This document shows, one piece after another, positions 1,909 through 60,203 of a DNA stretch of 64,000 nt. The first letter of the stretch is position 1, and each line of letters begins with the position of its first letter. The stretch is from IMG/VR virus record IMGVR_UViG_3300009183_000073; one strand, given 5' to 3'. The notes beneath the pieces are model-generated. The model worked only from the letters and a program-made list of their open reading frames with translations. It did no database searches and had not been told where the DNA came from. The translations under genes were made by a program, and so were the position numbers. This stretch comes from an uncultured virus (IMG/VR IMGVR_UViG_3300009183_000073) (lineage: Duplodnaviria; Heunggongvirae; Uroviricota; Caudoviricetes).

Positions 1909-3477
1909 ATGGCAGATTTGTTTATTAATAAACTTGATGAATCAATAACAGTAAAATCTAGCGATTTTACTGCATTTGACGTAGCTGATAGTAATACTGG
2001 TAGATATTATACCAAAAAAGTATCTTTTAGTACTCTAAGTAACAGAGTAAGTACAGATGTTGTTAATAATTTACAAACAAAATTAAATTTATTACAAAAT
2101 AATATAAACAATGTTGCTGCTACTATAAGTACAAAATTAGATAAAAGAGGTTTAACTTTTAATATAAACGAAAAAGTTACGGGAATTTTAGTTCTTAATT
2201 CTGGACTTTCTGCTTTAGGTACATCTGATTTTGGAGGAGAAATAAATGTACATAATAATAAAATTACGACATTAGCAGATCCTACAAATAATTACGATGC
2301 AGCACATAAAAAATATGTAGATGATAAAGTTTCTACAATACCATCAGTAAATCCAGATGTTTTTATATTAAAAACTGGTGATGTAATGACTAGTGGATTT
2401 CTAAAACTAGCAAATGATCCAGTAGATCCGATGGAAGCAGCAACAAAAAGATATATTGATAATAAAGCTGCATCATTTTCAAATTATCTTCCAATAAATG
2501 GTGGAACAATGCTCGGAAGCATTAACCTCAATAATAATAAAATAACAAATGTAAAAGATATTGATGGTTCCTCCGCTGATGGAGATGCAGTAAATTACAA
2601 ATATGTAAGAGCAATCAATCCCGCCGCGAAGTTCTTTCCCTTATCTGGAGGATTGATGAATGTTGGTTACATTAATCTAAACGGAAATAGAATTTATAAT
2701 GTACCAGATGTATCCCCATCTACCACTGATACTGATGTAGTTAATAAAAAATATGTAGATTCTAGAATAGCTCCACCAGCTAATAGTCTACCTTTAGCTG
2801 GTGGAACGATGTCTGGAGTTATTAACGTAAACAACAACAAGATAACTAATGTTCCCGACGTTTCTCCCTCATCTTCTGATGGTGATGCAGTTAATAAAAA
2901 GTATGTAGATTCTAAGTCGTCAGCAACTCCTACTGGAGTCCTGTTATTAGCTGGTGGAACGATGTCTGGAGTTATTAACGTAAACAACAACAAGATAACT
3001 AATGTTCCCGACGTTTCACCTTCTTCTTCTGATGGTGACGCAGTTAATAAAAAGTATGTAGATTCTAAAGGAGCTTCTCCATCTACATATATTCCTTTGT
3101 CTGGAGGAGCCTTAACTGGACCTTTAGTTTTAAAAAGTTTTTCTGAAAAGATAGGATCTTCTTCATCTTCTGGATCTCCATCAATATTTAATTTTGATCT
3201 TAATACTGGAAATACATTTACAATAACTGTACCTACTACTATTGCAAGATTTACTACAAGTAATTCTCCTTCAGATTCTTTCAGTATTACTTTAGTGATT
3301 ACACAAAATAGTGCAGCTCCTTATAATGTAACTGCATGGACTATTGATGGAACTGTAATAAAATGGGCTGGTGGAATAGCACCACAATTAACCCAGACAG
3401 TAAATAAAATTGATATTTTTGCTCTTACTAAAATAGGAGCAAATTGGTTTGGTTTTGTTGGAGGTCAAAACTTTTAA
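1909..3477 (+). CDS. Tail fibre-like protein with repeated LPLxGGTMxG...DAVNKKYVD units
   Basis: About six repeats of a ~50-aa unit typical of phage fibres/trimeric adhesin stalks; C-terminal WAGGIAPQLT..KIDIF domain common in fibre tips; TAAATA 5 nt before ATG. Confidence 0.75.
   Translation: MADLFINKLDESITVKSSDFTAFDVADSNTGRYYTKKVSFSTLSNRVSTDVVNNLQTKLNLLQNNINNVAATISTKLDKRGLTFNINEKVTGILVLNSGLSALGTSDFGGEINVHNNKITTLADPTNNYDAAHKKYVDDKVSTIPSVNPDVFILKTGDVMTSGFLKLANDPVDPMEAATKRYIDNKAASFSNYLPINGGTMLGSINLNNNKITNVKDIDGSSADGDAVNYKYVRAINPAAKFFPLSGGLMNVGYINLNGNRIYNVPDVSPSTTDTDVVNKKYVDSRIAPPANSLPLAGGTMSGVINVNNNKITNVPDVSPSSSDGDAVNKKYVDSKSSATPTGVLLLAGGTMSGVINVNNNKITNVPDVSPSSSDGDAVNKKYVDSKGASPSTYIPLSGGALTGPLVLKSFSEKIGSSSSSGSPSIFNFDLNTGNTFTITVPTTIARFTTSNSPSDSFSITLVITQNSAAPYNVTAWTIDGTVIKWAGGIAPQLTQTVNKIDIFALTKIGANWFGFVGGQNF
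2794..3068 (+). repeat. Near-identical ~120-bp direct repeat with 153-bp period inside the fibre gene
   Basis: ttagctggtggaacgatgtctggagttattaacgtaaacaacaacaagataactaatgttcccgacgtttc... at 2794 and 2947, ending gattctaa at 2915 and 3068; only a few synonymous differences. Confidence 0.9.
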
Positions 3478-8312: not shown

Positions 8313-9170
8313 ATGGACAATATAACTATAATTTATAATTCAAAACATCTAAATCTAAAAAATAAAGAACATATTATTATATCAAAATATAATAATGGAC
8401 ATGGAATTAAAACATTAGCAATTGAATTTTCGGTATCTCAAAATGCTATAAAAAATTTTTTACTTAAAAATGAAATTCCTATAAGGAATCCAAAAGAAGC
8501 TAGAAATACTAATATCTATAATGAAGGATATGGGAGAAATAAGGCAAAAATAAAAGATCAATCTATAATAAATTCTATTATAGAACAGTATAAAAACGGC
8601 GGAAGTTGTGTAGAAATGGGATCAAAATATAATGTAAGCCATAGAACTATTTTGAATATTCTTAGAAAGAATAACATAAAAATTAGATCTAATACTGAGG
8701 CACAAAATCATTCCTATACAAAACAAAGAGTTGTTGATGGTAATATCAAAAAATTCGGAGTCTCAAATGCTATGCAACATCCAGAGGTATTTGAAAGATC
8801 TAATTTAAATAGATATAAATATAAAACTTGCATTATAAATGAAGTTATATTTGATAGATTGCAAGGGTTTGAAGAACAAGGAATTAGATATTTATTAGAA
8901 AAATATACAAACATTACAATACATGACATCAAAGCTGGTAGATGCCAAGATCTACCCAGAATAAAATATCATTATGATGTAGACAGAATATATTTTCCTG
9001 ACATTTATATCCCAAAAATAAATCTTTTAGTAGAAATTAAATGCGAATATACATTTAAAGATAATATTAAAATGAATTTGGCTAAACAAAAATCTTCTCT
9101 CGAATCTGGATATAATCATCTTATTATAATTTTTTCAAACGATGGAAAAACACATTTGTATAACGTATAA
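8313..9170 (+). CDS. Free-standing PD-(D/E)XK-type homing endonuclease with N-terminal HTH repeats
   Basis: C-terminal YFPDIYIPKINLLVEIK motif; two HTH-like segments (IKTLAIEFSVSQNAI; MGSKYNVSHRTILNIL); converges on primase; full TATAAATA plus upstream hairpin. Confidence 0.7.
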   Translation: MDNITIIYNSKHLNLKNKEHIIISKYNNGHGIKTLAIEFSVSQNAIKNFLLKNEIPIRNPKEARNTNIYNEGYGRNKAKIKDQSIINSIIEQYKNGGSCVEMGSKYNVSHRTILNILRKNNIKIRSNTEAQNHSYTKQRVVDGNIKKFGVSNAMQHPEVFERSNLNRYKYKTCIINEVIFDRLQGFEEQGIRYLLEKYTNITIHDIKAGRCQDLPRIKYHYDVDRIYFPDIYIPKINLLVEIKCEYTFKDNIKMNLAKQKSSLESGYNHLIIIFSNDGKTHLYNV

Positions 9171-14122: not shown

Positions 14123-14815
14123 CTACTCTTTGTATTCCTTTAAAAACGATTTGTTGCTTTTAGCCCATGCTTTATCGTGGATGGATAAAAGCCCAGGGGA
14201 ACTATGAATTACGTGGATTGGATACACACCTATCTTAAGTTTAGCTCTATTTGCATCAATTGAACTAGCCAAATCATAATGATGAAATTTATAATTTTCA
14301 TTAAATTTCCAATCCGTTTTCTTAACAGAATCGAGATGTAATGCCATAAACAACCCATCTATAATAGCAACTCTAGATGGTGTAGGCCCGAATGCCGTAG
14401 TCATAGTCTGGTTAGAATTTCCCGCTGGATGTGCTACTTCACCTCTCTGTTGGTTTATATCAGTCATTACATGCCATAATGCTGGATTTGTAAGACGTGG
14501 ATTCAATCCACCAGCAAGGCCAACAATATTGTAACCTAACTTATAAGCCATCTGTAGCTTTTCGTATAGCTTTAAATCATCAATATAAACATCATCGTGT
14601 ACACAAACGATGAATTCTGCTCCAGAGTCTTTATATTCTTGGAACTTTTTATTATAAACTGTAGGCATTCCCTCTGTATTCTCCCAGACGATATCTAATT
14701 TATAATTAGGAGTATTTAAACCATCTTTCCAAGAACGAAATAATGGTAGTGTATGAGCTTCTTCTTGAAGCTTTCTAGTACATGAAACAATAATAACTTT
14801 TGGAGTCATGTTCAT
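14123..14815 (-). CDS. GT-A fold glycosyltransferase-like protein
   Basis: VCVHDDV (DxD-like), IVGLAG, IIDGLFMA, FHHYD motifs of the small GT2-like family. Confidence 0.75.
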   Translation of the reverse strand: MNMTPKVIIVSCTRKLQEEAHTLPLFRSWKDGLNTPNYKLDIVWENTEGMPTVYNKKFQEYKDSGAEFIVCVHDDVYIDDLKLYEKLQMAYKLGYNIVGLAGGLNPRLTNPALWHVMTDINQQRGEVAHPAGNSNQTMTTAFGPTPSRVAIIDGLFMALHLDSVKKTDWKFNENYKFHHYDLASSIDANRAKLKIGVYPIHVIHSSPGLLSIHDKAWAKSNKSFLKEYKE

Positions 14816-17444: not shown

Positions 17445-18404
17445 TCAAGATAAAATATCATCTAAAGTAAAAATTAATTGATCGGTTGGTTTCCTCGGAA
17501 CCCAATTCATTACTTTATAAAAACGTCCGATACATTTATACATATCCTTTTCAAACATCTCTTCCATATCTGGATTAAAAATATTCTTAAATTCTTCGGG
17601 ATACCTATTCTTATACGCTATAGCAGATATTCCATACTTATTTGGTTGTTCTACATAAAATAATTTTATCTTATCTCCACTAATAATTTTTTCATACTTA
17701 TTAGATATACCAAACTCTTCTATCAATAAATTATAGAAGTATGCAGCTTTAACGTGAAACGGGGTTCCTTTGTATGTAGAAAACCCGTTTGATAGTTGTT
17801 CATATTTTTCAAGATTTCTAATTCCTGAAACTTGAGATATTTCATCTATACCCATATTTAAAAATACGTCATACGATTCCTTGAAAATCTTATTCGTAAT
17901 TGTTTCGGATTTTGTTGTAATCAAGTTTTGAATAATTTTTTTAATATAAGGCTTTACTGCTTTCGGCATTTTGGTTGTGACTACTTCTACTCCAGTGTAT
18001 TTCCAATCATCACATACAACGCCTTCCTTATCCAAAACATGTAATACATAGCGTTTCTTTTCTAGAAAAACTCCATAATCGCACATGGATTCTCTCTTAA
18101 ATTCAAATCTACTATCTATGGTATTTAAAGTCTGACGAGACCACAACTTTATATTCTCGTTTAAATATTTCTCTAATTTTTCCGCTACTTTATATGCTTC
18201 TTTAGTAATTTTCCCGTTGATTGAAAAATCTTTAACTAACTGAAATAAAGATAGATAGACACTATTATGGACTAATATATCATTCGCAAAAAAGGTATGT
18301 TCTGTATTTGAATCCATTTCTATATCATAAACATATTCGTCTTCAAAAAATCCTATTTCTTTTACTGAATCTATTTTAACTATTTGGTAATTCTGGTTTT
18401 CCAT
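17445..18404 (-). CDS. gp43: DNA polymerase B C-terminal half, preceded by a C-intein (IntC)
   Basis: Start MENQNY at 18404; 47-aa IntC ending YVYDIEM...FFANDILVHN, then S-VY and polB motifs FKRE, KKRY, YTGVEVV, GDKIK. Confidence 0.9.
   Translation of the reverse strand: MENQNYQIVKIDSVKEIGFFEDEYVYDIEMDSNTEHTFFANDILVHNSVYLSLFQLVKDFSINGKITKEAYKVAEKLEKYLNENIKLWSRQTLNTIDSRFEFKRESMCDYGVFLEKKRYVLHVLDKEGVVCDDWKYTGVEVVTTKMPKAVKPYIKKIIQNLITTKSETITNKIFKESYDVFLNMGIDEISQVSGIRNLEKYEQLSNGFSTYKGTPFHVKAAYFYNLLIEEFGISNKYEKIISGDKIKLFYVEQPNKYGISAIAYKNRYPEEFKNIFNPDMEEMFEKDMYKCIGRFYKVMNWVPRKPTDQLIFTLDDILS
18264..18404 (-). other. Split intein C-fragment (47 aa)
   Basis: Block F VYDIEM and block G ILVHN followed by +1 Ser (AGT at 18263-18261). 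Confidence 0.9.
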
Positions 18405-19381
18405 ATAAAAACAACAAACATTCATTTATAACCTTTTGAGGATTTTCTGTAAAATTCTTTTCCCACACTATTAGTAAATCATAACCTCTTGAAACTATCA
18501 ACTCATTTTTTTTATTATCTTCTTCCCAAATATCTTTAGAAGTTAAATCTTTTCTGAAAAAATTTGGTCTATCATTTTCGGTATACATTTTTGGATTTGC
18601 ATGATATACATTTCCATTAAATTCTATACATTTTTTTCTTTCTGTATCTACATAATCAAAAAATCTAGCTTTTTTATTTGTTTTATCATATATACAAAAT
18701 TCTCCAGTTTTTTTAATCCCGTAATATATTTTGCTGCTATGCATATCTTCTATTTGAAGGAATAAAATTTGAGACATTTCAGAAAAACTTTCTCTTTTGG
18801 CTACTTTATATAAATATTCTTTATATTTTTTTTTCTCCTTCTTCTATACCATATTTAATTTGAAAATTGCCCAAAGTTAATCGTTTCTTTTCATTTAATT
18901 CTTTATATTTTATATTACCTTCAATTTCTCCATATTTTTCTTTAAAATAATCCAAAGAACATCCAGCGTGTTTTTGTCGATTAACATAATTTTCCCAAAT
19001 TTGGGTTCCGATTTCCTTCCCATGTTTTTTTACTAAATTAATCTTAGTAACAGCTCTACTTTTATTAAAATTTTTATATTCTTTTTCAGACCATCCATGA
19101 GTTTTATTCTTATATTCAAATGAATTAGAATAAGCTTGTTTATTTTTATAAGATTCCCACCGAATCATTCCTTCTTCTGGTCCATATTTTTTAACCAAAT
19201 TTTCTAATGTAACTGCTGTCGTTTTTCTTACTTCATCTGTAATAGTTTTACTATTAGGATATAAAGTTTTATATTCTAAAAAAGTCGTATTATGAGTTTT
19301 TAAATGTGAAGTCGTTATTCGTTTTTTATTAATGTTACATATTTCACATGTAACATATTCTTCTAATTTATTATTTTCCAT
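18376..19381 (-). pseudogene. Vsr-like (very-short-patch) homing endonuclease between the intein halves, broken by one extra base in an A9 run
   Basis: ORFs 18821-19381 (C2H2 zinc finger, KKYG repeats) and 18376-18777 (IEFNGNVYHANP...GYDLLIVWE) join in frame (EGEKKYKEYLYKVAKRESFSEMSQILF) if one base is removed from T9 at 18826-18834. May be an assembly error rather than a true pseudogene. Confidence 0.7.
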
Positions 19382-19394
19382 ACATGATTATTTA

Positions 19395-19428
19395 TCTTAG
19401 CAGACACAGAATCTTGTGTCTGCTAAGA
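19395..19428. promoter_or_regulatory. 14-bp inverted repeat next to a TAAATA late promoter upstream of the endonuclease
   Basis: TCTTAGCAGACACA-gaatct-TGTGTCTGCTAAGA; the minus strand continues ...TAAATA-atcatgt-ATG(19381). Confidence 0.75.
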
Positions 19429-21519
19429 ATTTTTAATAATCATTTTATCGGTTTCTTTAATTTCTTTTGGTGATACTCTAATTAATTTTCCGTCTCTCAT
19501 AACCATACATCCATGATCTTCTGTCATGATTACGGATTTTCCTCCCACTTCAATAAGATATTTTTTCTTTGTTACCTTATGTCTAATTAGATTTTTTATT
19601 TTTCCGTATATGATTTTGTCAGTTTTAGAACAAAATGTAGAACTGTATAAATTTTCCTCCGTAACATCTATTATTTCATGTCCAAATTTAGAATTTAATT
19701 TTTGTATATTGTTATACTTTTCATACAATTCCCCAATTTTAATTTTTCCTATATTTGTATCTACTATTGTATCAAAAACTACGCTATCTGTATCTCCAGC
19801 AATAAGACCTTTATTTAATTCTACTGGATCGGTTATCCCAATTTCTTGAGTAACAAATCTTTTAAAAATTTCTCTAGCTTCTTTTGCTACTGCTTGTCCT
19901 GTTAAAGTAATAGATTCTGCAATATCCATATCTCCAATGGGACAAAATTTATTTGCAGTCGCGCCATATGTAGAGTTCAAAAAGATTTTGATCGCTTGTT
20001 GTTTCGTATCCAATTGATCAATTTTGTTTTTGATCTTTTTATCTTCTGAATTATTTTCGTCTGCTTTTAATTTCTTTAATTCTTTTCTAATTTTAACACG
20101 TTTTTTATAAAAAGAATCCATTAATTCGGGAAGAATTCCTTTCTTTTTCTGGCTGAATAAGACCTTGGATCTAGAAACAGAAATCTTTTCTTTGATTAAG
20201 AAATTATGGAATTCTTTTGTAGTCATATCAACTACAATCCCATCTACATTCCTAATAGAAACCCTGTTCTTATCTATTTCTTCAATCCTTCCTACTTTAG
20301 TTTCTGGAGAAGTATTTAAAGTAATCATCGTATTTGGATACAATGAATTGGCATCGAAGCTAACAATCGAAGTGTGATGCCCAACTAATGGAACAGATAC
20401 ATGACCACCTTCGAAATCTTTTAACTCATCTTCATTTACAACAGTAGTAAGCAGTCTTTGTTTCCTTTTTCTAGCTTCAATTGCAGCAGCCCCAGTCACG
20501 ACACTAACTGTTCCCAATCCAGATTCAATGGTAGTACAGCCAACATAAGATAACATCCTTAATAGCTCTATATACTTCAATCCCTCTTCTAGTTTAACAA
20601 GAATCTTAACGTCTTGAATGTTATAATCGACAAATGTCTGCCAATCGTTTATCATGAATTCATACAGACTTTGATTTCCATAATCAACTTTGGTTTCATC
20701 CAATTCTACCTGCGCTATATAATCTAATTTATAGCTTTCTCTATTAGAAGGGCAGAACTTTTTATAAATATCAAGATAATCTACACAAGAAATACCATCA
20801 ACCCTATGAACTATTTCCTTTTTACCAAACTTACCAGCAAACATTTTAGTATATCGTCTCTGATGAGGTGACAATCTGTCTGCATCTTCTTCTCCTAGAA
20901 CTTTTACAATGCGATTTATGATATAAGGAATATCATAACGGTCTGAATTCCATCCAGATAAAATATCAGGAGGATCTAATTGAAAATAATCAATAAAACT
21001 TAACAAAAGTTCTTGTTCTGATGTACAAAATTTATAATTTACATCTGGATCATTTGTAGAATATTGTTGTAATCCCCAAACGATATATTTTTTCCTTAAA
21101 GAATCGTATAATGTTATGACACAAATCTCCTCTTGCGGATCATGCGGAGAAGAAAATCCATTACTTCCAACCGCTTCAATGTCCACGAAATATATCTTTA
21201 ATGGAAATTTAACAAAGTCTTCTGTATCATTATGATTCCAATAAGTATCAATTAATACTTGTTGAACTGGACTATGGTTATCAAATATTCTAGTAAGCCC
21301 TCTTTCTTTGATAAATTTATATTTGTCAAAGTGATTTTTAAATTCTTTAATTTTTAATTTAGTATTAAAAATACTGGTCTCATGACCGTTATTATCTTCA
21401 TAATAAAAATAGGGATGGCACCGTAAAGAAGTAACGATGCGACCCCCATCTTCTGACCAAGTATATAATTCTACGGTCTCTGTCTTATAATTATAAACAG
21501 CGTTTCTATAGCCTACCAT
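19423..21519 (-). CDS. gp43: DNA polymerase B N-terminal half (3'-5' exonuclease plus palm), ending in an N-intein (IntN)
   Basis: ExoI FVDIE, ExoII GWNSDRYDIPY, ExoIII YNIQD, motif A SFDANSLYP, motif B KIFLNSTYG, motif C AGDTD then intein sequence to the stop. Confidence 0.93.
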   Translation of the reverse strand: MVGYRNAVYNYKTETVELYTWSEDGGRIVTSLRCHPYFYYEDNNGHETSIFNTKLKIKEFKNHFDKYKFIKERGLTRIFDNHSPVQQVLIDTYWNHNDTEDFVKFPLKIYFVDIEAVGSNGFSSPHDPQEEICVITLYDSLRKKYIVWGLQQYSTNDPDVNYKFCTSEQELLLSFIDYFQLDPPDILSGWNSDRYDIPYIINRIVKVLGEEDADRLSPHQRRYTKMFAGKFGKKEIVHRVDGISCVDYLDIYKKFCPSNRESYKLDYIAQVELDETKVDYGNQSLYEFMINDWQTFVDYNIQDVKILVKLEEGLKYIELLRMLSYVGCTTIESGLGTVSVVTGAAAIEARKRKQRLLTTVVNEDELKDFEGGHVSVPLVGHHTSIVSFDANSLYPNTMITLNTSPETKVGRIEEIDKNRVSIRNVDGIVVDMTTKEFHNFLIKEKISVSRSKVLFSQKKKGILPELMDSFYKKRVKIRKELKKLKADENNSEDKKIKNKIDQLDTKQQAIKIFLNSTYGATANKFCPIGDMDIAESITLTGQAVAKEAREIFKRFVTQEIGITDPVELNKGLIAGDTDSVVFDTIVDTNIGKIKIGELYEKYNNIQKLNSKFGHEIIDVTEENLYSSTFCSKTDKIIYGKIKNLIRHKVTKKKYLIEVGGKSVIMTEDHGCMVMRDGKLIRVSPKEIKETDKMIIKNS
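19426..19785 (-). other. Split intein N-fragment (120 aa, Ser1)
   Basis: Begins SVVFDTIV right after GDTD; block B TEDH (TxxH); ends KMIIKNS-stop. Confidence 0.9.
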
Positions 21520-21525: not shown

Positions 21526-21554
21526 ATGGTAGCATACGCCTCTATAAACGTCAA
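21526..21554 (-). promoter_or_regulatory. sigma70-type promoter directly upstream of gp43
   Basis: TTGACG-N17-TACCAT-N6-ATG on the minus strand. Confidence 0.65.
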
Positions 21555-22762
21555 GGATTGTACCTCTTCATGTTTACTCTTCTAGGATCTCCATACGGAG
21601 TAGTAAACAATTCTTGATAACAACCAAGATTTTTATCCAATTCCATAAACCTATCTTCTGCTACTTTCCTTCTCTTATATGAAGAATTCTTATAATGTCC
21701 AGTTCTACGAAGCTCTTCTTCGATCTTAAATAACATTTCTTCACCAGTCTTAAATTTAATTTCAGCATCTTCGTAAGTACACAAATCTTGACATGCTACT
21801 GGCAATCCATATGCACATGCTTCAATATATTTGAGATCACTCTTTGCTTTATTAAAAGCATTATCTTGTAAAGGAGCAACCATCATCTGAACACCTAGTT
21901 CATGAATCTTTGCTGGGTAATCATACAATCTCTGCCATTGATGAAATTCAATCTCTCCTCGTTCAATATATGGACGAAGTGCTAATGGGAATGCACCAAT
22001 AAATACCCATTGATATTTGTGTCTAGAATCAATTATCGCTTTGATGACATGCTCAAAATCATCTTTTTGGCCCACTCTGTTTTCAACATCAAAATGTGCG
22101 CCACTCCCAGCGTAAAGGAGACGAGGCTTCTTTTTATTTTTGTCATATAAAGCATTTATCCTATTTGGATCAAAATAATTACCAATCCAGAATTTAGCTG
22201 GGAAATTCGGAATAACACTTATCTCCTTCTTACCAGTTCTAGTTTGATATAATTCTCTCATGAAATTACACGTAACACTAACTTCATCACACATATTAAT
22301 GATTGAAGTTACATTATTTCTAATTTCATCCGAAGTAAATGCTGTCTTAAATTTATTGTAATCTGGAATATCTTCTCTGAAGACTACATCATCTACTTCA
22401 TAAATAATCTTAAATCCAATTTGCTTCTGCACATCCTTAAGGAATTTTACGAATTCTAATTGAGCAGAAGTTGCCTGACGCTGTAGTCTGATAGCCTTTA
22501 CATTAACATACCATCTCGGGTCCAAAACCATGACTGTGGTATCGGTGACCATCATATGTCCTTGGTAATTTAGAAGATGACTAACCCATCCCAAACGATA
22601 TAAACCACATCCACTAAGATCTGCTCCGAATTGAATTACTCTAGGAAGATTTACTTCTGAAGGCGCTTCGGGTGCTTTTTGAGGAGCAGATTGCTGTGGA
22701 TTAACTGGAACTGTAGGAACAAAACGGGCAAATGGTTTTGGAGGAGTAAATGTAGCTATCAT
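21551..22762 (-). CDS. GT-B fold glycosyltransferase-like protein
   Basis: GCGLYR, IIYEVDD, VIPN, YAGSGAH, APLQDNAFNKAKSDLKYIE signature of phage/bacterial GT4-like proteins. Confidence 0.8.
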   Translation of the reverse strand: MIATFTPPKPFARFVPTVPVNPQQSAPQKAPEAPSEVNLPRVIQFGADLSGCGLYRLGWVSHLLNYQGHMMVTDTTVMVLDPRWYVNVKAIRLQRQATSAQLEFVKFLKDVQKQIGFKIIYEVDDVVFREDIPDYNKFKTAFTSDEIRNNVTSIINMCDEVSVTCNFMRELYQTRTGKKEISVIPNFPAKFWIGNYFDPNRINALYDKNKKKPRLLYAGSGAHFDVENRVGQKDDFEHVIKAIIDSRHKYQWVFIGAFPLALRPYIERGEIEFHQWQRLYDYPAKIHELGVQMMVAPLQDNAFNKAKSDLKYIEACAYGLPVACQDLCTYEDAEIKFKTGEEMLFKIEEELRRTGHYKNSSYKRRKVAEDRFMELDKNLGCYQELFTTPYGDPRRVNMKRYNP

Positions 22763-22805: not shown

Positions 22806-23456
22806 CTATCCTCTTTTTTTATATTTTTCTGGTATATAATCCCCCCAATTCTGGGGGACAGAATCACTCATTCTTATCAAGTTTTCTTCTGGAATTAATT
22901 TAGCTTCAATTTCAGAATGACAATTAGGACATACAATAGTTAGATTAGAATGATTGTGTGGATCTTTTATTTTTCTTCCTTTTATATGATGTATTTCTAT
23001 GCTTGCTTTATCCCATCCACACAAACTACAGCTATTCAAACTCATGCTTATTAATAAGTCCTTAAAAAACATTCTATTTCTTAACTCGTATAAAGAATTT
23101 ATTTCATTAGAAATAATAGTTGCATGACGATTCTTTCCTTTATTATTAAATTTTGCAGTACATGACTGATTACAAAACATTTTAATATCTTCTAAGGGTT
23201 TATTTCTATTATGTTTTTCTGTTTTCTTTTCTACAAATTTTTCATAAGAAATATCAGTATAACAAAAATTACATTTTCTAGGATTTTTCAAATAATCTTC
23301 TTTTCTGTCATATGCTTGACGCTTAATTCTAAATGTAGAACCGCATCCTTGACTACAAAAACAATTACCTGTTTTATTTAAACCTCTTCTAACCCCTCTT
23401 TTAGAAGAAACTATTTGTTTTTCTGTTAGAGGTTTATTACAAAATGTACAATTCAT
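22806..23456 (-). CDS. HNH homing endonuclease with zinc-finger repeats
   Basis: CSLCG...IEIHHI...NLTIVCPNCH; N-terminal CxxC/FCSxxC fingers. Confidence 0.85.
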   Translation of the reverse strand: MNCTFCNKPLTEKQIVSSKRGVRRGLNKTGNCFCSQGCGSTFRIKRQAYDRKEDYLKNPRKCNFCYTDISYEKFVEKKTEKHNRNKPLEDIKMFCNQSCTAKFNNKGKNRHATIISNEINSLYELRNRMFFKDLLISMSLNSCSLCGWDKASIEIHHIKGRKIKDPHNHSNLTIVCPNCHSEIEAKLIPEENLIRMSDSVPQNWGDYIPEKYKKRG

Positions 23457-28997: not shown

Positions 28998-29870
28998 ATG
29001 GTATCAAAAGAGGAAAAAATAAATTACATAAAAGATAACATATACAAATATAAATCAATTTCTCATTTTTTACAAAAAAATAAAGGATTTCATCATTTTT
29101 ACTACAAACACAAAGAAGAAATTGGAGAATTTAGAAATCTATTCGGATTACGAAGAAGTTCTACACAACAATTAATTTGTAAAAAAATATTAGAATCGAT
29201 ATTAAATGATAGTTGTTTATATAATACTAGAAAAATTTTAGAAAATAAAATAGAATTAGATCTTTATTCTGAAAAATACAAAATAGCATTAGAATATAAT
29301 GGTTATTATTGGCATAATAAAACAGAAGAAAAAGATTTTAAAAAAATTAAATTATGTAAAAATAAAGATATACTTTTTATTTTAATAAAAGAAAATCATC
29401 TAAATGAACTAATTACAATTGATAAATCTATAATTGAAATTAAAAAACAATTTAAACTTTATTTAAAAAAAATAAATAAAATTACAAATTTAAATATTAC
29501 AAATCAACAGATAGATGAAATTATTATAGATGATACTGATTTGTTATATGAAACATATTCTCAAAAAGATATAAATTATATTTTGAATGAATGTTGTAGA
29601 TATTCTGAAATAAAAACAAAATATAATAAAATTTGGCAATTTCTTCTTAGAAATAAGAAATTACATTTATTAGATTCAATCAAAAAAAGAGATTACATTT
29701 ATATGAATAAAACAGATTTTATAAATTATGTTTTAAAAAAATTTAAAAATTATACTAACTTTATTAAACATAAGATATATCAATTAGCAAGAAAAAGAGA
29801 TTATATAACAACTATCAAACATTGTTTTGATAAAAACATTTCATATCACGAGGAACTCGATTTAATCTGA
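28998..29870 (+). CDS. Putative homing endonuclease (PD-(D/E)XK/Vsr-like, ELDxY...EYNGxxWH)
   Basis: YNTRKIL..IELDLYSEKYKIALEYNGYYWH; paralogue of 33377-34861. Confidence 0.75.
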   Translation: MVSKEEKINYIKDNIYKYKSISHFLQKNKGFHHFYYKHKEEIGEFRNLFGLRRSSTQQLICKKILESILNDSCLYNTRKILENKIELDLYSEKYKIALEYNGYYWHNKTEEKDFKKIKLCKNKDILFILIKENHLNELITIDKSIIEIKKQFKLYLKKINKITNLNITNQQIDEIIIDDTDLLYETYSQKDINYILNECCRYSEIKTKYNKIWQFLLRNKKLHLLDSIKKRDYIYMNKTDFINYVLKKFKNYTNFIKHKIYQLARKRDYITTIKHCFDKNISYHEELDLI

Positions 29871-33376: not shown

Positions 33377-34861
33377 ATGGGTTATACATGCGGTCGCAGA
33401 CATACAGAAGAATCTTTAAGAGATATTGCTAAACAATATAAAACCAGATCAGAATTTCAAATTTCTGATATAGGTGCTTATAGTAGTGCTAAAAGAAAAG
33501 GAAAAGAATTTTTAGATTCTATTTGTGAGCATATGATAAGTGGATCGTATTCGACACCACAATTGATATGTAAGCATATTATGGAAGAATTATTGGGAAT
33601 TGAATGTGAATATAATACAAGAAAAATAATCACTCCTTATGAATTAGACATTTATTTTTCACAATTTAAATTAGCAATAGAATATAATGGAAAAGGATGG
33701 CATTATAAAGAAGAAGTCGTGGATAGAGATAAAATAAAAGTAAAAATATGTAGTGATAAAAATATCACATTGGTAATAATTACTGAAAATAACAGAGATT
33801 ATGAATCCGACGTAAAAACACAATTAATTTCAAATTTAGATTTAATTAATAAAGTCACAAAAAATAATTTTTCAGAAAAAGATATAATTGATATAGATTG
33901 TAAAAATGTTTACGATTTTATATTAAAAAGAAAAGATCTAGATGAAATTAAAGACAAAATATCAAAATGTAGTTCTATTAAAGAATTTCAAAGAAAATAT
34001 ATTTCAGAATATACTTTTTTAAGAAAAAATAAAAAATTAGATTTATTAAACGAGATACGAACTGTAGATATATATTCAGACGAAGAACTTCTGAACAGAT
34101 GTAAAAAAATTTCAAATTATACTGATTTTATTAAAGACCATCATTCACTTTATCAGAGATGTATAAATAAAAATCTATTATTAGTTGCCACTGCGCATAT
34201 GAAAAAACACAAATGTTTGTATAGACAACACACAAATAAAGAACTGATGGATTTATCTAAAAATTATAACTTTAAATCACAAATGAAGATTTCTAATACA
34301 TCGTTGTTTAACGAATTAAAGCGAAGAGGAATTCTAGATAAGGTTCAGTATAATAAAGATTTCGTATATGTTCATAGTAAAACTGCCGAAAAAGAAGATA
34401 AATTAAAAAAATGCTTCGAGGAAGCTATAAAATATGATAATTATGAAGATTTTAAAAACGACAAAGAGCTTTTTAATCAATGTAAGAAATATAAAATAAT
34501 AAACAAAATTACAGAAAAATTTGAAAAAGAAGATATAACAAAAATTATACTAGATGAATCTAAAAAATATAAAAATTTTGAAGAATTTACAAATAGTATT
34601 TGGTACTTAAAAAGTAAAAAATACGTAGGTTTGATACAAAAAATAAAATCACAAAATAATTGGGATTTCTTTAAAAAAGGAAAAATGAATTATATAGAAA
34701 AATTTCCAAATATAATAGAACTGATAAACAAAGATGTAAATTTGGATACCATAGTTGAAATGACTAAAGTCAAAAAAACTACTATTTGGAGAATTAAAGT
34801 ACGAATGCACAAGGCAGGAATATTGAAAGTTGAATATAATTTGAGAAAAAAGGATAAATAA
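33377..34861 (+). CDS. Putative homing endonuclease with repeated helical DNA-binding units
   Basis: YNTRKIITPYELDIYFSQFKLAIEYNGKGWH; repeats of A-K-x-Y-x-x-x-x-[ED]-F; paralogue of 28998-29870. Confidence 0.75.
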   Translation: MGYTCGRRHTEESLRDIAKQYKTRSEFQISDIGAYSSAKRKGKEFLDSICEHMISGSYSTPQLICKHIMEELLGIECEYNTRKIITPYELDIYFSQFKLAIEYNGKGWHYKEEVVDRDKIKVKICSDKNITLVIITENNRDYESDVKTQLISNLDLINKVTKNNFSEKDIIDIDCKNVYDFILKRKDLDEIKDKISKCSSIKEFQRKYISEYTFLRKNKKLDLLNEIRTVDIYSDEELLNRCKKISNYTDFIKDHHSLYQRCINKNLLLVATAHMKKHKCLYRQHTNKELMDLSKNYNFKSQMKISNTSLFNELKRRGILDKVQYNKDFVYVHSKTAEKEDKLKKCFEEAIKYDNYEDFKNDKELFNQCKKYKIINKITEKFEKEDITKIILDESKKYKNFEEFTNSIWYLKSKKYVGLIQKIKSQNNWDFFKKGKMNYIEKFPNIIELINKDVNLDTIVEMTKVKKTTIWRIKVRMHKAGILKVEYNLRKKDK

Positions 34862-37542: not shown

Positions 37543-38325
37543 ATGAGTAAAAAAATAGGATTAGGTGTTGTTACATATAACAGACCAGAGTATTTCAAGA
37601 AGATTTTCAAGTCTATACCAATACATAAGTTAGACTCTATTGTAGTTGTTAACGACGGAACTCCGTATGGAGAATTAGAAGTTCCTTTAATTCAACACGA
37701 AACCAATAAAGGTGTTGGTGTAAGTAAAAATGATGCTTTACGTTTTCTTCTAGAGAAGGATTGTGATTATTTCTTTTTAATGGAAGATGATATAATCATT
37801 AAAGATCCAGATGTGTTTCAGAAATATATAGATGTTTCAGAGGAAACTGGAATCCAACATTTTAATTATAGTCAACATGGCTTGATGAACAAGTTACCGA
37901 ATACAGAAACTCCAGCTCCAAAAACTAGAATTGAGTATAAAAATGGAATTTCTATTGAATTATTTTCAAATTGTGTAGGAGCATTTTCGTTCTATACTAG
38001 AAAATGCATTGATGGTGTCGGTCTTTTGGATGAAGATTTTCATAATGCTTTAGAACATGTAGAACATACGTTTAATATTATTAAGAAAGATATGCATCCA
38101 CCTTTTTGGTGGTTTGCTGATATAGCTGATTCTAATAATTATCTTTCTGATATACCTTGGTCTCCGCAAACTAGTACTATTTCTTCGAAGCCAGATCATA
38201 TGGATTCCTTTAGAAAAGGACTTGAGATCTTTTCTAAAAAACATAAGGAAAATCTATTATCTATACCCGCACAACCATTGGATTCTGTTAAACAATCATT
38301 AAAAAATATTTACAGGAATAGATGA
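37543..38325 (+). CDS. Glycosyltransferase family 2
   Basis: GVVTYNRP, VVNDG, NKGVGVSKN, LMEDD, GLLDEDF. Confidence 0.88.
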   Translation: MSKKIGLGVVTYNRPEYFKKIFKSIPIHKLDSIVVVNDGTPYGELEVPLIQHETNKGVGVSKNDALRFLLEKDCDYFFLMEDDIIIKDPDVFQKYIDVSEETGIQHFNYSQHGLMNKLPNTETPAPKTRIEYKNGISIELFSNCVGAFSFYTRKCIDGVGLLDEDFHNALEHVEHTFNIIKKDMHPPFWWFADIADSNNYLSDIPWSPQTSTISSKPDHMDSFRKGLEIFSKKHKENLLSIPAQPLDSVKQSLKNIYRNR

Positions 38326-39053
38326 AAAATATAACTTTAGCTTCTTGTTCTTATAATACTCCTATAGTAACAATTACGATGCTTAAATCATTTTTTAAGC
38401 ATCACGACGAAACAGAAGTTTTGATTTGTGAAAATTCCTCTAATGAGGAAACTGTTAACCTTCTTAGAGAAGAAGGTGTAAATTTCATTAGAAATCAAAA
38501 TGGATTACACGCTCCTTCTGTTGATATTCTATTAAATGAATGTAAAACTGATTATATGTTGTTAGTTGATACTGATATTATATTTCTTAAAAATCATACA
38601 GATATTTTTAATCAAGTTAAACATCTTGATATTACACTTTTAGGCGAAATATGCGGTGATAGAGGAGGTAAAAAATTACATAACAGAGTTCATCCTTGGC
38701 ATTGTTTTATAAATGCAAAACATATTAAAGAAAATAATATAAAATTTTATGATTACAATCGTCAAATAAAAAGGGATGGAAGTCCAATTTATGATGTTGG
38801 TGCTAGCTTTTTTGAAGATATTAAAAAAGCAAAATTAAAAATCGGTGGTGTAAAATTAGAACATAATTATTTCAAACATTATGAAGGAATGTCTTGGAGA
38901 ACTCTTAAATATGGACAGAATGAAGGAAATATTGATGTTGATTCTAATGCAACTCATAATAATTATGAGTTGTACAAATACGGAAAAATGATAGAAGACA
39001 GATATCAATCAGAAATAGAAAATTTCAAACAAATAGAAATAAAATGTAAATAA
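38322..39053 (+). CDS. Glycosyltransferase (GT-A/GT2-like)
   Basis: CSYNTP, ICENS, LLVDTD, YDVG. Confidence 0.75.
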   Translation: MKNITLASCSYNTPIVTITMLKSFFKHHDETEVLICENSSNEETVNLLREEGVNFIRNQNGLHAPSVDILLNECKTDYMLLVDTDIIFLKNHTDIFNQVKHLDITLLGEICGDRGGKKLHNRVHPWHCFINAKHIKENNIKFYDYNRQIKRDGSPIYDVGASFFEDIKKAKLKIGGVKLEHNYFKHYEGMSWRTLKYGQNEGNIDVDSNATHNNYELYKYGKMIEDRYQSEIENFKQIEIKCK

Positions 39054-39055
39054 TT

Positions 39056-40291
39056 ATGAAAGATTACAAATTACTTATAAAGTTTCCAACACGGAGCAGA
39101 CCAGAAAAATTTTTTAATATTCTAGATGAGTATTATAAATTATTAAAAAAACCAAATTATGAATTTGTCGTATCATGCGATATTGATGATTTATCGATGA
39201 ATAACGATGTTGTAAAACAGAAGTTAGATACTTATCCAAATCTTAAATATTATTTTGATAATAATAAATCAAAAATACAAGCAGTAAATAATAATTTATC
39301 GGATAAAATTTTTGATATAGTCCTTTTGGCATCGGACGACATGCTTCCAATAGTAGAAGGATATGATGAAATTATAAGACAAAGGATGGAAGAAAATTTC
39401 CCAGATACTGACGGTGTTTTATGGTTTAATGACGGGTTCCAAGGACAAAATTTAAATACTTTATCTATATTAGGTAAGAAGTACTATGATAGATTTAATT
39501 ATCTTTATCACCCAGCATATAGATCATTGTATCCAGACACAGAATTTACTATAGTAAGTCAACAATTAAAAAAAGCAAAATATTTTGATGAAATTATTAT
39601 AAAACATATTCAGTATTCTATAGTCAAAGAAACACCAGATGAATTATATTTGAGGAATGATAGTTTGGAAAGTGTTGATAGAGCTGTATTTCTCGATAGA
39701 AAAAGTAGGAATTTTGATTTAAATTCTATAAAATTTTCTATAATGATTTGCTCTTTAAAGGCTAGAAAAAAATATCTAGAAAGACTATTAAATATTTTAA
39801 AACCCCAAAAGACGAACGAAGTCGAAGTATTATGTTTGATAGATGAAGGAGAGTTATCTATTGGAGCAAAGAGACAAAAATTATTAAATTCTTCTAAAGG
39901 AAAATATGTAGCATTTATTGATGATGATGATCTCATTTCTGATGATTATGTAAAGTTGATCCTAGAAGGAATAGATAAAAACCCAGATGTTATAGGTATT
40001 CATTTGATCATGAATACCGATGGGAAATTGTCTGGGAAGACGTATCACTCACTTAAGTATGATCATTGGTTTGATAAGAATGGTGATGATCCTTCGTGGA
40101 GATATTACTATAGAAATCCAAATCATCTAAATCCAATTAAAAGAGAGTTGGCTATGAAATCAAAGTATCCTAATATTAGTAATGGTGAAGATAGAGTCTT
40201 CTCTATGAACGTATTACCATTTTTGAAGACAGAACATTATATAGAAAGTCCTATATATTTTTACGAGGTAAGATCACATAAAGAAGTATGA
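39056..40291 (+). CDS. Two-domain glycosyltransferase (two GT-A modules)
   Basis: Domain 1 KFPTRSRP...LASDDM; domain 2 SIGAKRQ...YVAFIDDDD...GED. Confidence 0.8.
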   Translation: MKDYKLLIKFPTRSRPEKFFNILDEYYKLLKKPNYEFVVSCDIDDLSMNNDVVKQKLDTYPNLKYYFDNNKSKIQAVNNNLSDKIFDIVLLASDDMLPIVEGYDEIIRQRMEENFPDTDGVLWFNDGFQGQNLNTLSILGKKYYDRFNYLYHPAYRSLYPDTEFTIVSQQLKKAKYFDEIIIKHIQYSIVKETPDELYLRNDSLESVDRAVFLDRKSRNFDLNSIKFSIMICSLKARKKYLERLLNILKPQKTNEVEVLCLIDEGELSIGAKRQKLLNSSKGKYVAFIDDDDLISDDYVKLILEGIDKNPDVIGIHLIMNTDGKLSGKTYHSLKYDHWFDKNGDDPSWRYYYRNPNHLNPIKRELAMKSKYPNISNGEDRVFSMNVLPFLKTEHYIESPIYFYEVRSHKEV

Positions 40292-41187
40292 AAATAGAAA
40301 ATGTATCAGATAGTTATATAATTTCTAATTATGGTGGAGGAGTAAACACCAAAGAATATTATTATTATTGTGTTAATTTAATTAAAAATTTTTTATGTGA
40401 TACTGAATCAAAATATAATATTTTTTTAAGTACTCATGCTCATGATTTAAACAATTCAAATAAATCAATCAGTATTGACATACAGTTTGAACATACTTTA
40501 GTTAGAAATGGAGGAAGAGGTGTACACCATATAATACATGGAACATCAAAATATGATGATAACGAATGTTATCTAGTGAGAATTGATCGGTATGAATATT
40601 TAAAAAATCTGGATTTCATAATAGAATATAGTTTATCTAATTATTTTAATATACTAAATAGCGGATTTTTTGATGAATTCTGCAAGAAATTAATATGCAT
40701 ACATCCTATGATATATAATATTAATTTTGATAGAAAAACCAAAAAGGATGTAATAACTTTATATACATTAGAAAATCACGAAAGAAGAGCAAGAATTCAT
40801 AATCAAATACTTGACTTAAACATAAATTACAAAAATATAGATAATATATTTTCTGGAGAAGAAATAATAGAGTTATATAAAAACTCAAAAATTTTAGTAA
40901 ACATTCATCAGACCGAACATCATCACACATTTGAAGAACTTAGAACTTTGCCAGCATTATTAAATGGAGTTATAGTAATAAGTGAAAGATCTGGTTTAAC
41001 AGATTGTATTCCGTATGGAAAATATATAATATGGTGTGAGTATCATGAAATAAAAGATAAAGTGAAAGAAGTGTATGAAAATTATGATTATTATTATAAT
41101 AAGATATTTTCTGATGAATCTTTATTGCAGATTTTAAAAAATATGGAAATTCATAATAATAACATTCTAAAAAATTTTATAAAATGA
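40288..41187 (+). CDS. Glycosyltransferase-like (GT-B C-terminal, CgeB-like)
   Basis: SKILVNIH..FEELR..ALLNGVIVISE. Confidence 0.6.
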   Translation: MKIENVSDSYIISNYGGGVNTKEYYYYCVNLIKNFLCDTESKYNIFLSTHAHDLNNSNKSISIDIQFEHTLVRNGGRGVHHIIHGTSKYDDNECYLVRIDRYEYLKNLDFIIEYSLSNYFNILNSGFFDEFCKKLICIHPMIYNINFDRKTKKDVITLYTLENHERRARIHNQILDLNINYKNIDNIFSGEEIIELYKNSKILVNIHQTEHHHTFEELRTLPALLNGVIVISERSGLTDCIPYGKYIIWCEYHEIKDKVKEVYENYDYYYNKIFSDESLLQILKNMEIHNNNILKNFIK

Positions 41188-41933
41188 AAAATTATAATAT
41201 AGCGATCACAACATTCTCTAAAAGATTTGATTATTTAAAAAAATTGTTAGAACAAATAAGAACATATTCTAATAATAAGATTCATTTGATAATAAATGGA
41301 GAAAGGGATGGAAATTTTAATGAAACTTATAGAAAGGATATATTGAATATATGTTCAAATTATGATTTTATATATCCTGTTTTCTTTACTGAGATACGAG
41401 GTCTTACAAAGATGTGGAATACTTCATTGATATTTTCTAATGAAGATGATGTTTTGGTATTAAATGATGATATAGAAATACATTCAGTTGACATCTTTAA
41501 TAAAGCAACTGCAATAATAAACAATTCAAAATATAAGGGTTTATGTCGATTGAATGGAAGTTTTTCACATTTCGTAGCAAATAAAAATGTTATAGGATCT
41601 ATTGGATATTTTGATGAAAGATTGTTGGGGTTTGGGGAAGAAGACGGAGACATAATTTATAGATTAATGAAACATAGAATATCTTTAAATGATGCTCCAG
41701 TTTTTGGTTTAGCTAATATAGTTTGTGATGTAAAACATGAAGATGTTAAAGGACATTCTAATAGCAAGTATTCACAATTTAATAGAGATTTTATATACAC
41801 ACAAAAATACGGAAAAGATTATAGTTCTAAACTTCAAGGAATGTTCGACTATCCGATGAAAGAATTATTAGAAAATGTTAAACAATATCCTTACGAAGAA
41901 TTCTTTAAGGATAATAAGCACAAATTATTTTAA
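41184..41933 (+). CDS. Glycosyltransferase family 2-like
   Basis: RGLTKMWN, LVLNDD, IGYFDERLLGFGEEDGD. Confidence 0.8.
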   Translation: MKNYNIAITTFSKRFDYLKKLLEQIRTYSNNKIHLIINGERDGNFNETYRKDILNICSNYDFIYPVFFTEIRGLTKMWNTSLIFSNEDDVLVLNDDIEIHSVDIFNKATAIINNSKYKGLCRLNGSFSHFVANKNVIGSIGYFDERLLGFGEEDGDIIYRLMKHRISLNDAPVFGLANIVCDVKHEDVKGHSNSKYSQFNRDFIYTQKYGKDYSSKLQGMFDYPMKELLENVKQYPYEEFFKDNKHKLF

Positions 41934-41934
41934 T

Positions 41935-42642
41935 ATGAAACAATGTATAATACGTCAACCAGCAGGGATGGGTGATATTTTTGTCTGTCAAAAAATAGCT
42001 TTAAAGATTTCTGAGAAATATAAAATACCAGTAATATGGCCCGTGATAAAGGAATATTCTTATATAAAAGATTATATTAAAAACGACATCAAATTTATTG
42101 ATGAAAATGATTCGTTTGAATTTAAAGATTTGTATTTAAATTCAACTAGATTAGTGGATAACGAGAATGTTTTATTTATACCATTACACAACGATTCGTA
42201 TCATGCAACTATGGATTGTAAAATATTTGAAAAGAAATATAATAGACTTGGATTGAATTGTCATGATTGGTTAGATTATTTTAATTTTCAAAGAAATAAA
42301 GAAAGAGAAGATCATTTATTTTACGATATTTTAAAATTAAAAGATGGTGATAAGTATAATTTAGTGAATCGTATTTACGCATCTCTACCTAATTCAATTG
42401 TAGCTAACTTTGAGTATCCTAAAGATAAAAAAGTAATAGAAATAAAATTTTACGAAGGTATAAATGTTTTTGATTGGTGTAAGGTTTTTGAAAATGCTCA
42501 TGAAATATATACTACAGATACTTGTTATATCTTATTGGCAGAAAAATTAAAATGTAGTACTCTTAATATCTTTTCAAGAAGAACTGGAAATTGGAGTGAA
42601 ATAGATTATATATTAAATAAAAATTTCAACAAATTATATTAA
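41935..42642 (+). CDS. Glycosyltransferase-like (GT-B; heptosyl/fucosyltransferase-like)
   Basis: Likely ATG at 41935; IRQPAGMGDI; FDWCKVFENAHEIYTTDT. Confidence 0.5.
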   Translation: MKQCIIRQPAGMGDIFVCQKIALKISEKYKIPVIWPVIKEYSYIKDYIKNDIKFIDENDSFEFKDLYLNSTRLVDNENVLFIPLHNDSYHATMDCKIFEKKYNRLGLNCHDWLDYFNFQRNKEREDHLFYDILKLKDGDKYNLVNRIYASLPNSIVANFEYPKDKKVIEIKFYEGINVFDWCKVFENAHEIYTTDTCYILLAEKLKCSTLNIFSRRTGNWSEIDYILNKNFNKLY

Positions 42643-42644
42643 GT

Positions 42645-43142
42645 ATGAATACTATAAATTTTAATGGAAAACCCTATCCAGAATTTCAATCTAAAGGATT
42701 TGCATCACAATTCGCATTTCCCTTTGCTAAACATTTTTGTATAGGAACAGGTTATGATATTGGATGTAATAGAATTGAATGGTCATTTCCAAATTCTATA
42801 CCAATTGATCCAGTGTTAAACGAATACGATGCATATAATTTACCAGATAAAGAAGTCGATTATATTTTTTCTAGTCATTGTTTAGAACATCTACCTAATT
42901 GGGTAGATGCATTAGATTATTGGATTTCTAAACTAAAAAGTGGCGGCGTTTTATTTTTGTATCTTCCTCATTATGATCAAGAATATTGGAGACCTTGGAA
43001 TAATAGAAAACATGTTCATTGTTTTACTCCAAACATTATAAAAGATTATTTGGTTCAAAACAAACTTGTACATACAAACTCTATCTTTGTTAGTGAAAGA
43101 GACTTGAATCATTCGTTCATGGCTGTAGCAGAAAAAATATAA
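42645..43142 (+). CDS. Class I SAM-dependent methyltransferase
   Basis: GYDIGC, DYIFSSHCLEH, LKSGGVLFLYLP. Confidence 0.85.
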   Translation: MNTINFNGKPYPEFQSKGFASQFAFPFAKHFCIGTGYDIGCNRIEWSFPNSIPIDPVLNEYDAYNLPDKEVDYIFSSHCLEHLPNWVDALDYWISKLKSGGVLFLYLPHYDQEYWRPWNNRKHVHCFTPNIIKDYLVQNKLVHTNSIFVSERDLNHSFMAVAEKI

Positions 43143-43143
43143 T

Positions 43144-43773
43144 ATGTTTGATAATTATAAAAAATTAGAAAATGGTTTGATTAAACAAATAAATTTTTTT
43201 AATCAAAAAAGAGTTTATGATGTGGACTATATAAAAAATAGTTATGACAAATATAACGAACTTTCTAAGTATATGTCATATTTAAGATTGGGTTATTTAT
43301 TGGGATCTATAAAAGATAATATTAATACTATTTTAGATGTAGGATATGGAAACGGAGACTTTTTAAAAGTTGCGAAAACTAAAATTTCAAATTGTTACGG
43401 ATTTGAAGTAAATGACTATCCTATTCCTGAAGGATGTGTTCATACAAATGATATATATAACAATGAATTTGATGTAGTTTGTTTTTTTGATGTATTAGAG
43501 CATTTCGAAGACATTTATGAAATTAAAAATTTGAAAACAAAATATATCTACATATCAGTTCCAGAATGTCATTACTTTTCAGATGAATGGTTTTTAAATT
43601 GGAAACACAGAAGACCAGATGAACATTTATGGCATTTTAATTTAAAATCTTTAAAATCTTTTATGAATGAAATAGGATTTGATTACGTTTGTCATTCAAA
43701 CGTAGAAGATATTATAAGAAAACCTACGGATGAAAATTCTAATATATTAACAGCAATATTTAAAAAATGTTAA
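43144..43773 (+). CDS. Class I SAM-dependent methyltransferase
   Basis: ILDVGYGNGDF, FFDVLEH, ISVP, EHLWHF. Confidence 0.85.
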   Translation: MFDNYKKLENGLIKQINFFNQKRVYDVDYIKNSYDKYNELSKYMSYLRLGYLLGSIKDNINTILDVGYGNGDFLKVAKTKISNCYGFEVNDYPIPEGCVHTNDIYNNEFDVVCFFDVLEHFEDIYEIKNLKTKYIYISVPECHYFSDEWFLNWKHRRPDEHLWHFNLKSLKSFMNEIGFDYVCHSNVEDIIRKPTDENSNILTAIFKKC

Positions 43774-44486: not shown

Positions 44487-44528
44487 ATTATTTATTGATT
44501 TTATTTGTATGTTTGATATACTTTATAT

Positions 44529-59825: not shown

Positions 59826-60203
59826 ATGAAATCATTTAATAAATTAACAGACAATCTTCTATTAGAAGCAAAAGAAGATGTAAACGAACTTCACAAGTTT
59901 ATAGAAAAAAGAAAAACTGGTGCTGATAAAATTCGTAAAAGTTCCGAAGCAAAAGGTGGTCCCGCTATATTAACAGCAATACATTTTGCAGCTAAAGAAG
60001 TCCCATACAAACAAGCCTTACAATTATCTACAAAAGATTCTTGCAATAAGACTTTAAAGAAAAAAGGAGATGAACTAGCTTCTAAATTAAAATCTTGGCA
60101 TACTATGTCCCAAAAAGAATTTCAACATGTGATGGGACAATTAGAAGCTTATGGAGAAGTATATATAAAATCAGTTAAACCTGATTCTATTAAATTGGAT
60201 TAA
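59826..60203 (+). CDS. Late protein, candidate internal head protein
   Basis: TAAATA 6 nt before ATG; MKSFNKLTDNLLLE-A. Confidence 0.65.
   Translation: MKSFNKLTDNLLLEAKEDVNELHKFIEKRKTGADKIRKSSEAKGGPAILTAIHFAAKEVPYKQALQLSTKDSCNKTLKKKGDELASKLKSWHTMSQKEFQHVMGQLEAYGEVYIKSVKPDSIKLD

Follow-up and report, generated by a model that had tools for sequence, protein, structure and literature searches.

How is a phage DNA polymerase made whole when its gene is broken immediately past the catalytic aspartates, and how did the interruption come to lie there? The gene, polB, is carried on the minus strand of a 64,000-nucleotide (nt) stretch of DNA from an uncultured virus (IMG/VR record IMGVR_UViG_3300009183_000073), hereafter the window. 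This is a fragment of a T4-like phage, with gp32, UvsX, gp46/47, UvsW, portal and capsid genes, and its closest capsid matches are cyanophages, at only 30 to 35%. One open reading frame (ORF; 21519 to 19423) encodes 698 amino acids (aa), namely 578 aa of a family B polymerase ending in AGDTD, followed by a 120-aa N-terminal intein half (IntN). Another ORF (ATG at 18404, extending to 17445) encodes a 47-aa C-terminal intein half (IntC) that ends in HN and is followed by 272 aa of polymerase starting with SVYLS. The interruption falls at GDTD/S in motif C (the slash marks the insertion point), and the 1,522-nt insert consists of IntN, a hairpin, an endonuclease gene and IntC. We consider it probable, at about 0.88, that this insert is a composite selfish element and a member of the cassette family of Aes123 PolB1, CP21 and LCGC14, with putative functions in splicing, timed expression and homing. 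The layout, the exact borders and the intact splicing residues are read directly from the DNA, while the Vsr fold of the endonuclease comes from a model.

We compared both polymerase parts with an uninterrupted homologue. The N-extein is 73% identical to residues 1 to 575 of the unbroken polymerase of locus L034, and the C-extein is 73% identical to residues 576 to 848 of the same protein, without a gap at the junction. Removal of the intein restores an unbroken host polymerase at a conserved site. The coordinates that a first-pass annotation of this locus had assigned to the N-half, IntN, IntC and C-half all held on re-check; that annotation had missed the endonuclease frameshift, the putative control elements and the series of evolutionary states described below. 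A second in-frame ATG at 18425, upstream of 18404, would extend IntC to 54 aa. We preferred 18404 because it is homologous to the IntC start positions in relatives.

Both intein halves were recognised by profile models. Pfam Intein_splicing matched IntN (E value, 2e-7) and IntC (3e-4), as fragments and below the family cut-off, and TIGR01445 and TIGR01443 matched the halves above their own cut-offs. The top solved-structure match for both halves was 9HTH, the Aes123 PolB1 intein (E values, 2e-14 and 4e-6), which occupies the same DTD/S site. The first-pass annotation had proposed such a profile search and had claimed a split Ser1/Ser+1 intein resembling Aes123 PolB1; these matches bear it out. 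All motifs of a class 1 intein are present (nucleophile 1, N3 TxxH, terminal HN and nucleophile +1), as are those of a naturally split intein: separate ORFs, a break between N4 and C2, and opposite net charges (+6 for IntN and -9 for IntC, compared to +8 and -11 in Aes123). The IntN stop codon (19425 to 19423) is also found in L001, a separate assembly. Across 58 related cassettes, Ser1 is conserved in 57, the NX His in 55, TxxH in 57 and HN in all, and the window intein has each of them. Cysteine-independent inteins have been defined by Ser or Thr at positions 1 and +1 and by Arg or Lys before the NX His (PMC10189870; for published systems, here and below, we draw on excerpts of the cited papers). 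With Ser1, Ser+1 and R68-H69, the window intein falls within this definition. The strict cysteine-less criterion excludes it, as the two Cys earlier noticed inside IntN (Cys52 and Cys93) are indeed there; IntC has none, and an intein devoid of Cys was found in 5 of the 58 relatives. By motif, the window intein is therefore cysteine-independent, though not cysteine-free.

Inteins at the same site trans-splice in vitro: Aes123 PolB1 to about 30% (PMC11923092), CP21 to about 40%, and LCGC14 to 95% without reductant (PMC12707363). Because the splicing residues are kept in the window and same-site homologues trans-splice, the best reading is that the halves are most likely joined by protein trans-splicing. 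The two precursors would be translated separately, pair through their opposite charges and splice by oxyester chemistry (Ser1, the NX and N3 His, Asn47 and Ser+1), giving one 850-aa polymerase. The intein models, together with the insert-free alleles presented below, lend support to the earlier proposal that the polymerase depends on this reaction.

Between the halves, the first-pass annotation had placed one endonuclease gene of about 1 kb. Its Vsr-like character stood, but in the window it is not a single gene: owing to a ninth A at 18834 to 18826, it is read as two ORFs of 186 and 133 aa. In L001, which is identical to the window at 8435 of 8436 bases, the run is A8 and a single 334-aa protein results. 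This protein has an N-terminal Cys/His motif, helical KYG repeats and a C-terminal nuclease domain (residues 197 to 329). A sequence search of the PDB with the endonuclease gave no significant match. Folding from the single sequence was useless (predicted local distance difference test [pLDDT], 38), and a model was built from an 8-row alignment (pLDDT, 76). Domain 197 to 329 of this model aligned to Vsr (1cw0; Z, 10.4; root-mean-square deviation [rmsd], 3.0; 114 residues) and to I-Bth0305I (3r3p; Z, 9.5; rmsd, 2.9; 95 residues). A Foldseek search with the model returned nothing at an E value of 0.001 and listed Vsr and I-Bth0305I only at 0.3 to 0.5. As modeled, the middle gene is predicted to carry the Vsr/I-Bth0305I fold in its C-terminal domain. 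Of the 58 homologues, all have D242 and H260 and 57 have E253, while position 227 is E in 35 and P in 15, and position 283 is D in 26 and E in 24. I-Bth0305I shares the Vsr-fold C-terminal nuclease domain (PMC3239194) but lies in a group I intron rather than a split intein, and the N terminus of the window endonuclease, with its helical KYG repeats, has no recognised NUMOD motifs.

The spacer between IntN and the endonuclease gene is 41 nt long, and the end of that gene overlaps the start of IntC by 29 nt. Over the IntN stop lies a hairpin (-30.2 kcal/mol; z, -8.6) that none of 200 shuffled sequences equaled in stability, and its outer stem is able to pair up to just short of the endonuclease ATG. 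Adjacent to it is ATAAATA, here with a preceding G rather than as the full TATAAATA, for which a promoter role is putative. The ATAAATA motif occurs 59 times in the window and lies within 60 nt 5' of 17 of its 81 ORFs, including the portal gene; by simple arithmetic, about 2 ORFs would be expected by chance. The hairpin may block translation of the endonuclease on early transcripts, and the late promoter would then release it. Since a hairpin with a z of -3.8 or lower was seen in 7 of 17 loci, it is not universal. In L123, the spacer before 3434 has a tandem duplication of the 3' arm of the hairpin together with the TATAAATA motif.

To place the insert among its relatives, we searched with both the intein and the endonuclease. 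Each search matched 47 phage records, with genera largely shared. Among the best 80 of 388 endonuclease loci, 55 lay directly behind polB-IntN and 50 had all five parts. After dropping duplicates and incomplete rows, the 58 cassettes comprised 41 at DTD/S, 16 at GD/T (YGD/T) and one Cys1 intein, leaving 57 distinct Ser1 cassettes. The GD/T site lies two residues upstream of DTD/S, and its 16 rows form one clade of the intein tree. In the searched set of genome contigs, no intein relatives were found. The same gene layout occurs in CP21, PTm1 and VPALA, and a VSR endonuclease is annotated between the Aes123 polymerase halves. Identity of the window intein is 36% to Aes123, 39% to CP21, 37% to the LCGC14-like L153 and 63 to 64% to L003 and L112. 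By these comparisons, the insert adds one more copy to a cassette family that other phages were already known to carry. Of the earlier claim of a candidate new intein, the distinct sequence and the cysteine-independent motif remain, whereas the site and the endonuclease family were already annotated in Aes123. Split inteins at YGD/T with the same endonuclease family were seen in L140, L155, L156, L161 to L166 and others. L144 has a Cys1 intein at IY/C, without the NX His and with the same endonuclease family, a third site in motif C. By eye, the L153 intein (match at 2501 to 3433) resembles the published LCGC14 PolB2 intein and is flanked by the same endonuclease family. Distant endonuclease homologues precede IntC pieces ending in SHN/S or SHN/T in L195, L200 to L204, L208, L209, L211, L212 and L216, where the hosts are, by eye, a helicase and terminase-like genes.

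Aes123 PolB1 (Aeromonas phage Aes123; JN377899; PDB 9HTH; PMC11923092) is like the window in its DTD/SVYL site, Ser1/Ser+1, 120-aa IntN and NX His, and in the homologous Vsr-like gene between the halves (29% identity) that overlaps the IntC start. It differs in having no Cys in IntN, a 39-aa IntC, an additional split in polB and no hairpin signal. A 2025 study characterised three further PolB Ser inteins (PMC12707363). CP21 PolB1 and LCGC14 PolB2 share the DTD/S site and class with the window, and CP21 and L153 carry the same endonuclease family. The GOM intein, compared by eye only, is not identical to that of the window, which belongs to a TEDHGC clade outside which CP21, LCGC14 and GOM fall. 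The split PolB intein of MIJ3/PA5oct and the SCTP-2 mini-intein (PMC6892783) also interrupt motif C and are related Ser1 inteins. PA5oct (L131) has the same site but another endonuclease (560 aa) and reversed charges (IntN, -14; IntC, +4); the SCTP-2 intein, a contiguous one, lies two residues further upstream. The PolB16 OarG split intein (PMC10189870; PDB 8CPN) shares Ser1/Ser+1 after GDTD, the NX His and a Cys two past the N3 His but is split atypically, with a 15-aa IntN. The fractured genes described in 2009 by Dassa et al. (PMC2677866) have the same order on one strand: host-N/IntN, spacer, free-standing Vsr-like gene, overlap and IntC/host-C. The spacer and overlap of the window are within their ranges (27 to 51 nt and 6 to 69 nt), and both systems have a hairpin and a late-promoter motif of putative function upstream of the endonuclease. 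The hosts described there do not include PolB, and the inteins start with Cys.

We then determined the occupancy of the site in polB, using an N-extein search that gave 79 loci with the same phage excluded. The site was empty in 74, held a cassette in 2 and was unclear in 3. In L033 to L036 the empty site reads AGDTD-SVYLS. Contigs from three of four runs (X1 and X3/X4) connect 19786 to 18261 through two other letters, exactly free of the insert; X3 and X4 gave identical tables, are probably one data set and were counted once. The window polymerase is the sole intein carrier in a clade of 16 rows, with the other 15 empty (FastTree support, 100). Likewise, L067 and L078 have the cassette and the near-identical L077, L079, L081 and L082 are empty, each of these four matching L067 exactly over the 180 nt that precede the site. 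The L126 intein clusters with that of L067, but the L126 polymerase does not. Endonuclease distances track polymerase distances over intein distances (partial rho, 0.61 versus 0.20; 45 rows, with the short intein noisier), which fits a target within polB. Cleavage by I-Bth0305I is restricted to alleles without the insertion and occurs next to the insertion site (PMC3239194). The cassette endonuclease would similarly cleave polB near the DTD-S codons where the site is empty, and the entire insert would be copied by homing; part of the pattern could also reflect loss and recombination. A second big insert, at 2850 to 3990 of L067 and also in L077 to L082, lies in the polB exonuclease domain and resembles a contiguous intein with an endonuclease domain.

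We also compared 31 same-site inteins obtained with intein and extein queries, excluding duplicates, near-copies and the partial L010, with PA5oct and SCTP-2 as the outgroup. Eighteen are split with this endonuclease, 3 are split with an eroded one, 3 are split without it and 7 are contiguous. That a single site is found empty, occupied by a split intein whose endonuclease is present, eroded or lost, or occupied by a contiguous intein goes beyond what is in print, within the literature searched. The endonuclease is broken or eroded in L002, L013, L029, Lak-A1 and F379; in a DNA alignment, L002 lacks 720 nt present in L003. In Aes516, IntN is joined to the codons with which the Aes123 endonuclease ends. 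At the DNA level, the contiguous CC_R7 intein shares 94% identity with split CP21 and F379. Monophyly of the 7 contiguous inteins was rejected (approximately unbiased test [p-AU], 5e-5), as was the separation of split and contiguous forms with CC_R7 left out (p-AU, 2e-9). Of 300 bootstrap trees, 299 nested CC_R7 among split forms, and 299 did so for L008. When contiguous L008 and L126 were aligned at the DNA level with split relatives, divergence was too high for a junction scar to be seen.

Several observations weigh against an insert that splices and homes as one unit. With its broken endonuclease frame, the window copy may be unable to home; the intein is just 36 to 39% identical to experimentally tested ones; a strong hairpin was seen in only a minority of the 17 loci; and the window endonuclease does not cluster with those of L003 and L112, which have the nearest inteins (35 to 37% identity for the endonuclease). 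Co-conversion tracts are unreadable in L067 to L082, as mosaicism runs through the whole L067/L077 group, and repeated loss or plain recombination could also yield the patchy distribution. Phage enzymes fractured without splicing do exist, such as Aeh1 nrdA and gp43 of Aeromonas phage 25 (cited in PMC2677866), and the intein halves might merely dock two polymerase chains without a covalent bond. We consider this highly improbable, given that every splicing residue is retained here and across the 58 cassettes, that same-site homologues splice, and that an unspliced intein would be expected to occupy the active site, the break being one residue past the catalytic Asp. Repair at the RNA level appears more improbable still. 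Group I introns lie elsewhere in polB of three relatives, and ribosome bypass has been named as a formal alternative (PMC2677866); yet about 1 kb would need skipping, both insert ends encode intein with conserved catalytic residues, and no Rfam family was found across the 64-kb window. A genuine frameshift, leaving a decaying, non-homing cassette whose intein still splices, would fit the A9 run and the endonuclease erosion among relatives, but we regard it as unlikely. Over the 8,436 bases L001 differs by that base alone, three contigs encode the 334-aa form and one the broken pieces, and homopolymer runs are a typical place of assembly error, so an assembly error is likelier than decay.

With trans-splicing and homing of the whole insert as the preferred reading, the direction of change between split and contiguous forms has to be weighed. 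In the published direction (PMC2677866), the endonuclease would target contiguous mini-intein DNA; contiguous inteins would be ancestral, many would have split independently (step II of the Dassa model, repeated) and no split would have been undone. This agrees with a tree in which L004, L007, L009 and L119 group without contiguous L008, which was not rejected (p-AU, 0.128), and with the many weak branches (about one third) of the 162-column intein tree. Moreover, the contiguous intein of L020 is distant from those of L002 and L003, its polymerase neighbours, and is not derived from them, which indicates that contiguous inteins also move or recombine; the L008 and L020 results speak against re-fusion. 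Over the 300 bootstrap trees, however, a history lacking re-fusion needs 12 to 18 independent splits versus 6 to 7 re-fusions, numbers that depend on the root. In addition, endonuclease clades mirror intein clades where resolved, endonuclease distances follow the polymerase as described above, and inteins at three nearby positions in motif C share a single endonuclease family. Repeated one-way splitting is thus doubtful. The scatter of contiguous inteins among split ones suggests a homing cycle with repeated re-fusion, and the relatives point to a cassette that moves intact and to a split that is reversible. We lean towards a reversible cycle, in which the cassette would home whole into empty polB, the endonuclease would be deleted and the halves would re-fuse repeatedly, with a two-codon shift of site that keeps the endonuclease. 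The Dassa model, as excerpted, has no step returning to an endonuclease-free contiguous intein (PMC2677866), and the titles and abstracts searched, which did not cover subscription literature, contained no reversible split-intein cycle.

For protein engineering, the window adds another candidate Ser1/Ser+1 split intein, perhaps orthogonal because of its 36 to 39% identity to the characterised ones. Papers of 2023 to 2026 call such inteins rare, in contrast to the 57 distinct Ser1 cassettes collected here. With different states at one site, two questions become testable: is the endonuclease directed at the intein or at the host gene that lacks it, and can splitting be reversed? If the cycle is true, a split intein would have a homing cycle that is complete and reversible, splits at motif C of phage polB would not be one-way fission intermediates, and dozens of natural split and fused Ser intein pairs would be available for testing.

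Table 1. Parts of the interrupted polB locus, in window coordinates
Feature	Position	Strand	Characteristics or basis
PolB N-extein, 578 aa	19786..21519	-	Exonuclease domain, motif A SFDANSLYP, motif B KIFLNSTYG, motif C to AGDTD; Pfam DNA_pol_B + exo, PHROG 262
IntN, 120 aa + stop	19423..19785	-	Ser1, R68-H69 NX, T88-E-D-H91 N3, Cys52, Cys93, net charge +6
RNA hairpin	19395..19428	-	14-bp stem, 6-nt loop, spans IntN stop
ATAAATA, T4 late-promoter-like motif	19389..19395	-	Just 5' of endonuclease ATG; putative function
Vsr-like (EDxHD-type) endonuclease gene, 334 aa if intact	18376..19381	-	Predicted fold and homologue alignment
A9 run, frame-shifting the endonuclease gene here; A8 in L001	18826..18834	-	Comparison with L001
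IntC, 47 aa	18264..18404	-	VYDIE block, terminal H46-N47, Cys-free, net charge -9
PolB C-extein, 272 aa + stop	17445..18263	-	Ser+1 (SVYLS), palm remainder, KKRY, YTGVEVV, thumb; PHROG 262, 1918

Further features were observed in polB of the relatives. Group I introns lie at motif B in L002 (3628 to 3848), L020 (3130 to 3348) and L029 (3097 to 3329), and the gene seems to be broken again just upstream, in the fingers region. In L011 (5405 to 6377), the gene for the C-terminal polymerase part shows a frameshift, which may be real or an error, 32 residues past IntC. The window itself, in which no tRNA gene was found, has many glycosyltransferase and nucleotide-sugar genes (21551 to 22762, 14123 to 14815 and 37543 to 45524), one of them immediately upstream of polB. 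Other free-standing nuclease-like genes are found at 22806 to 23456, 60200 to 60976, 28998 to 29870, 33377 to 34861 and 8313 to 9170; they comprise HNH, GIY-YIG, two PHROG 3339 homing-endonuclease matches and DUF7487.

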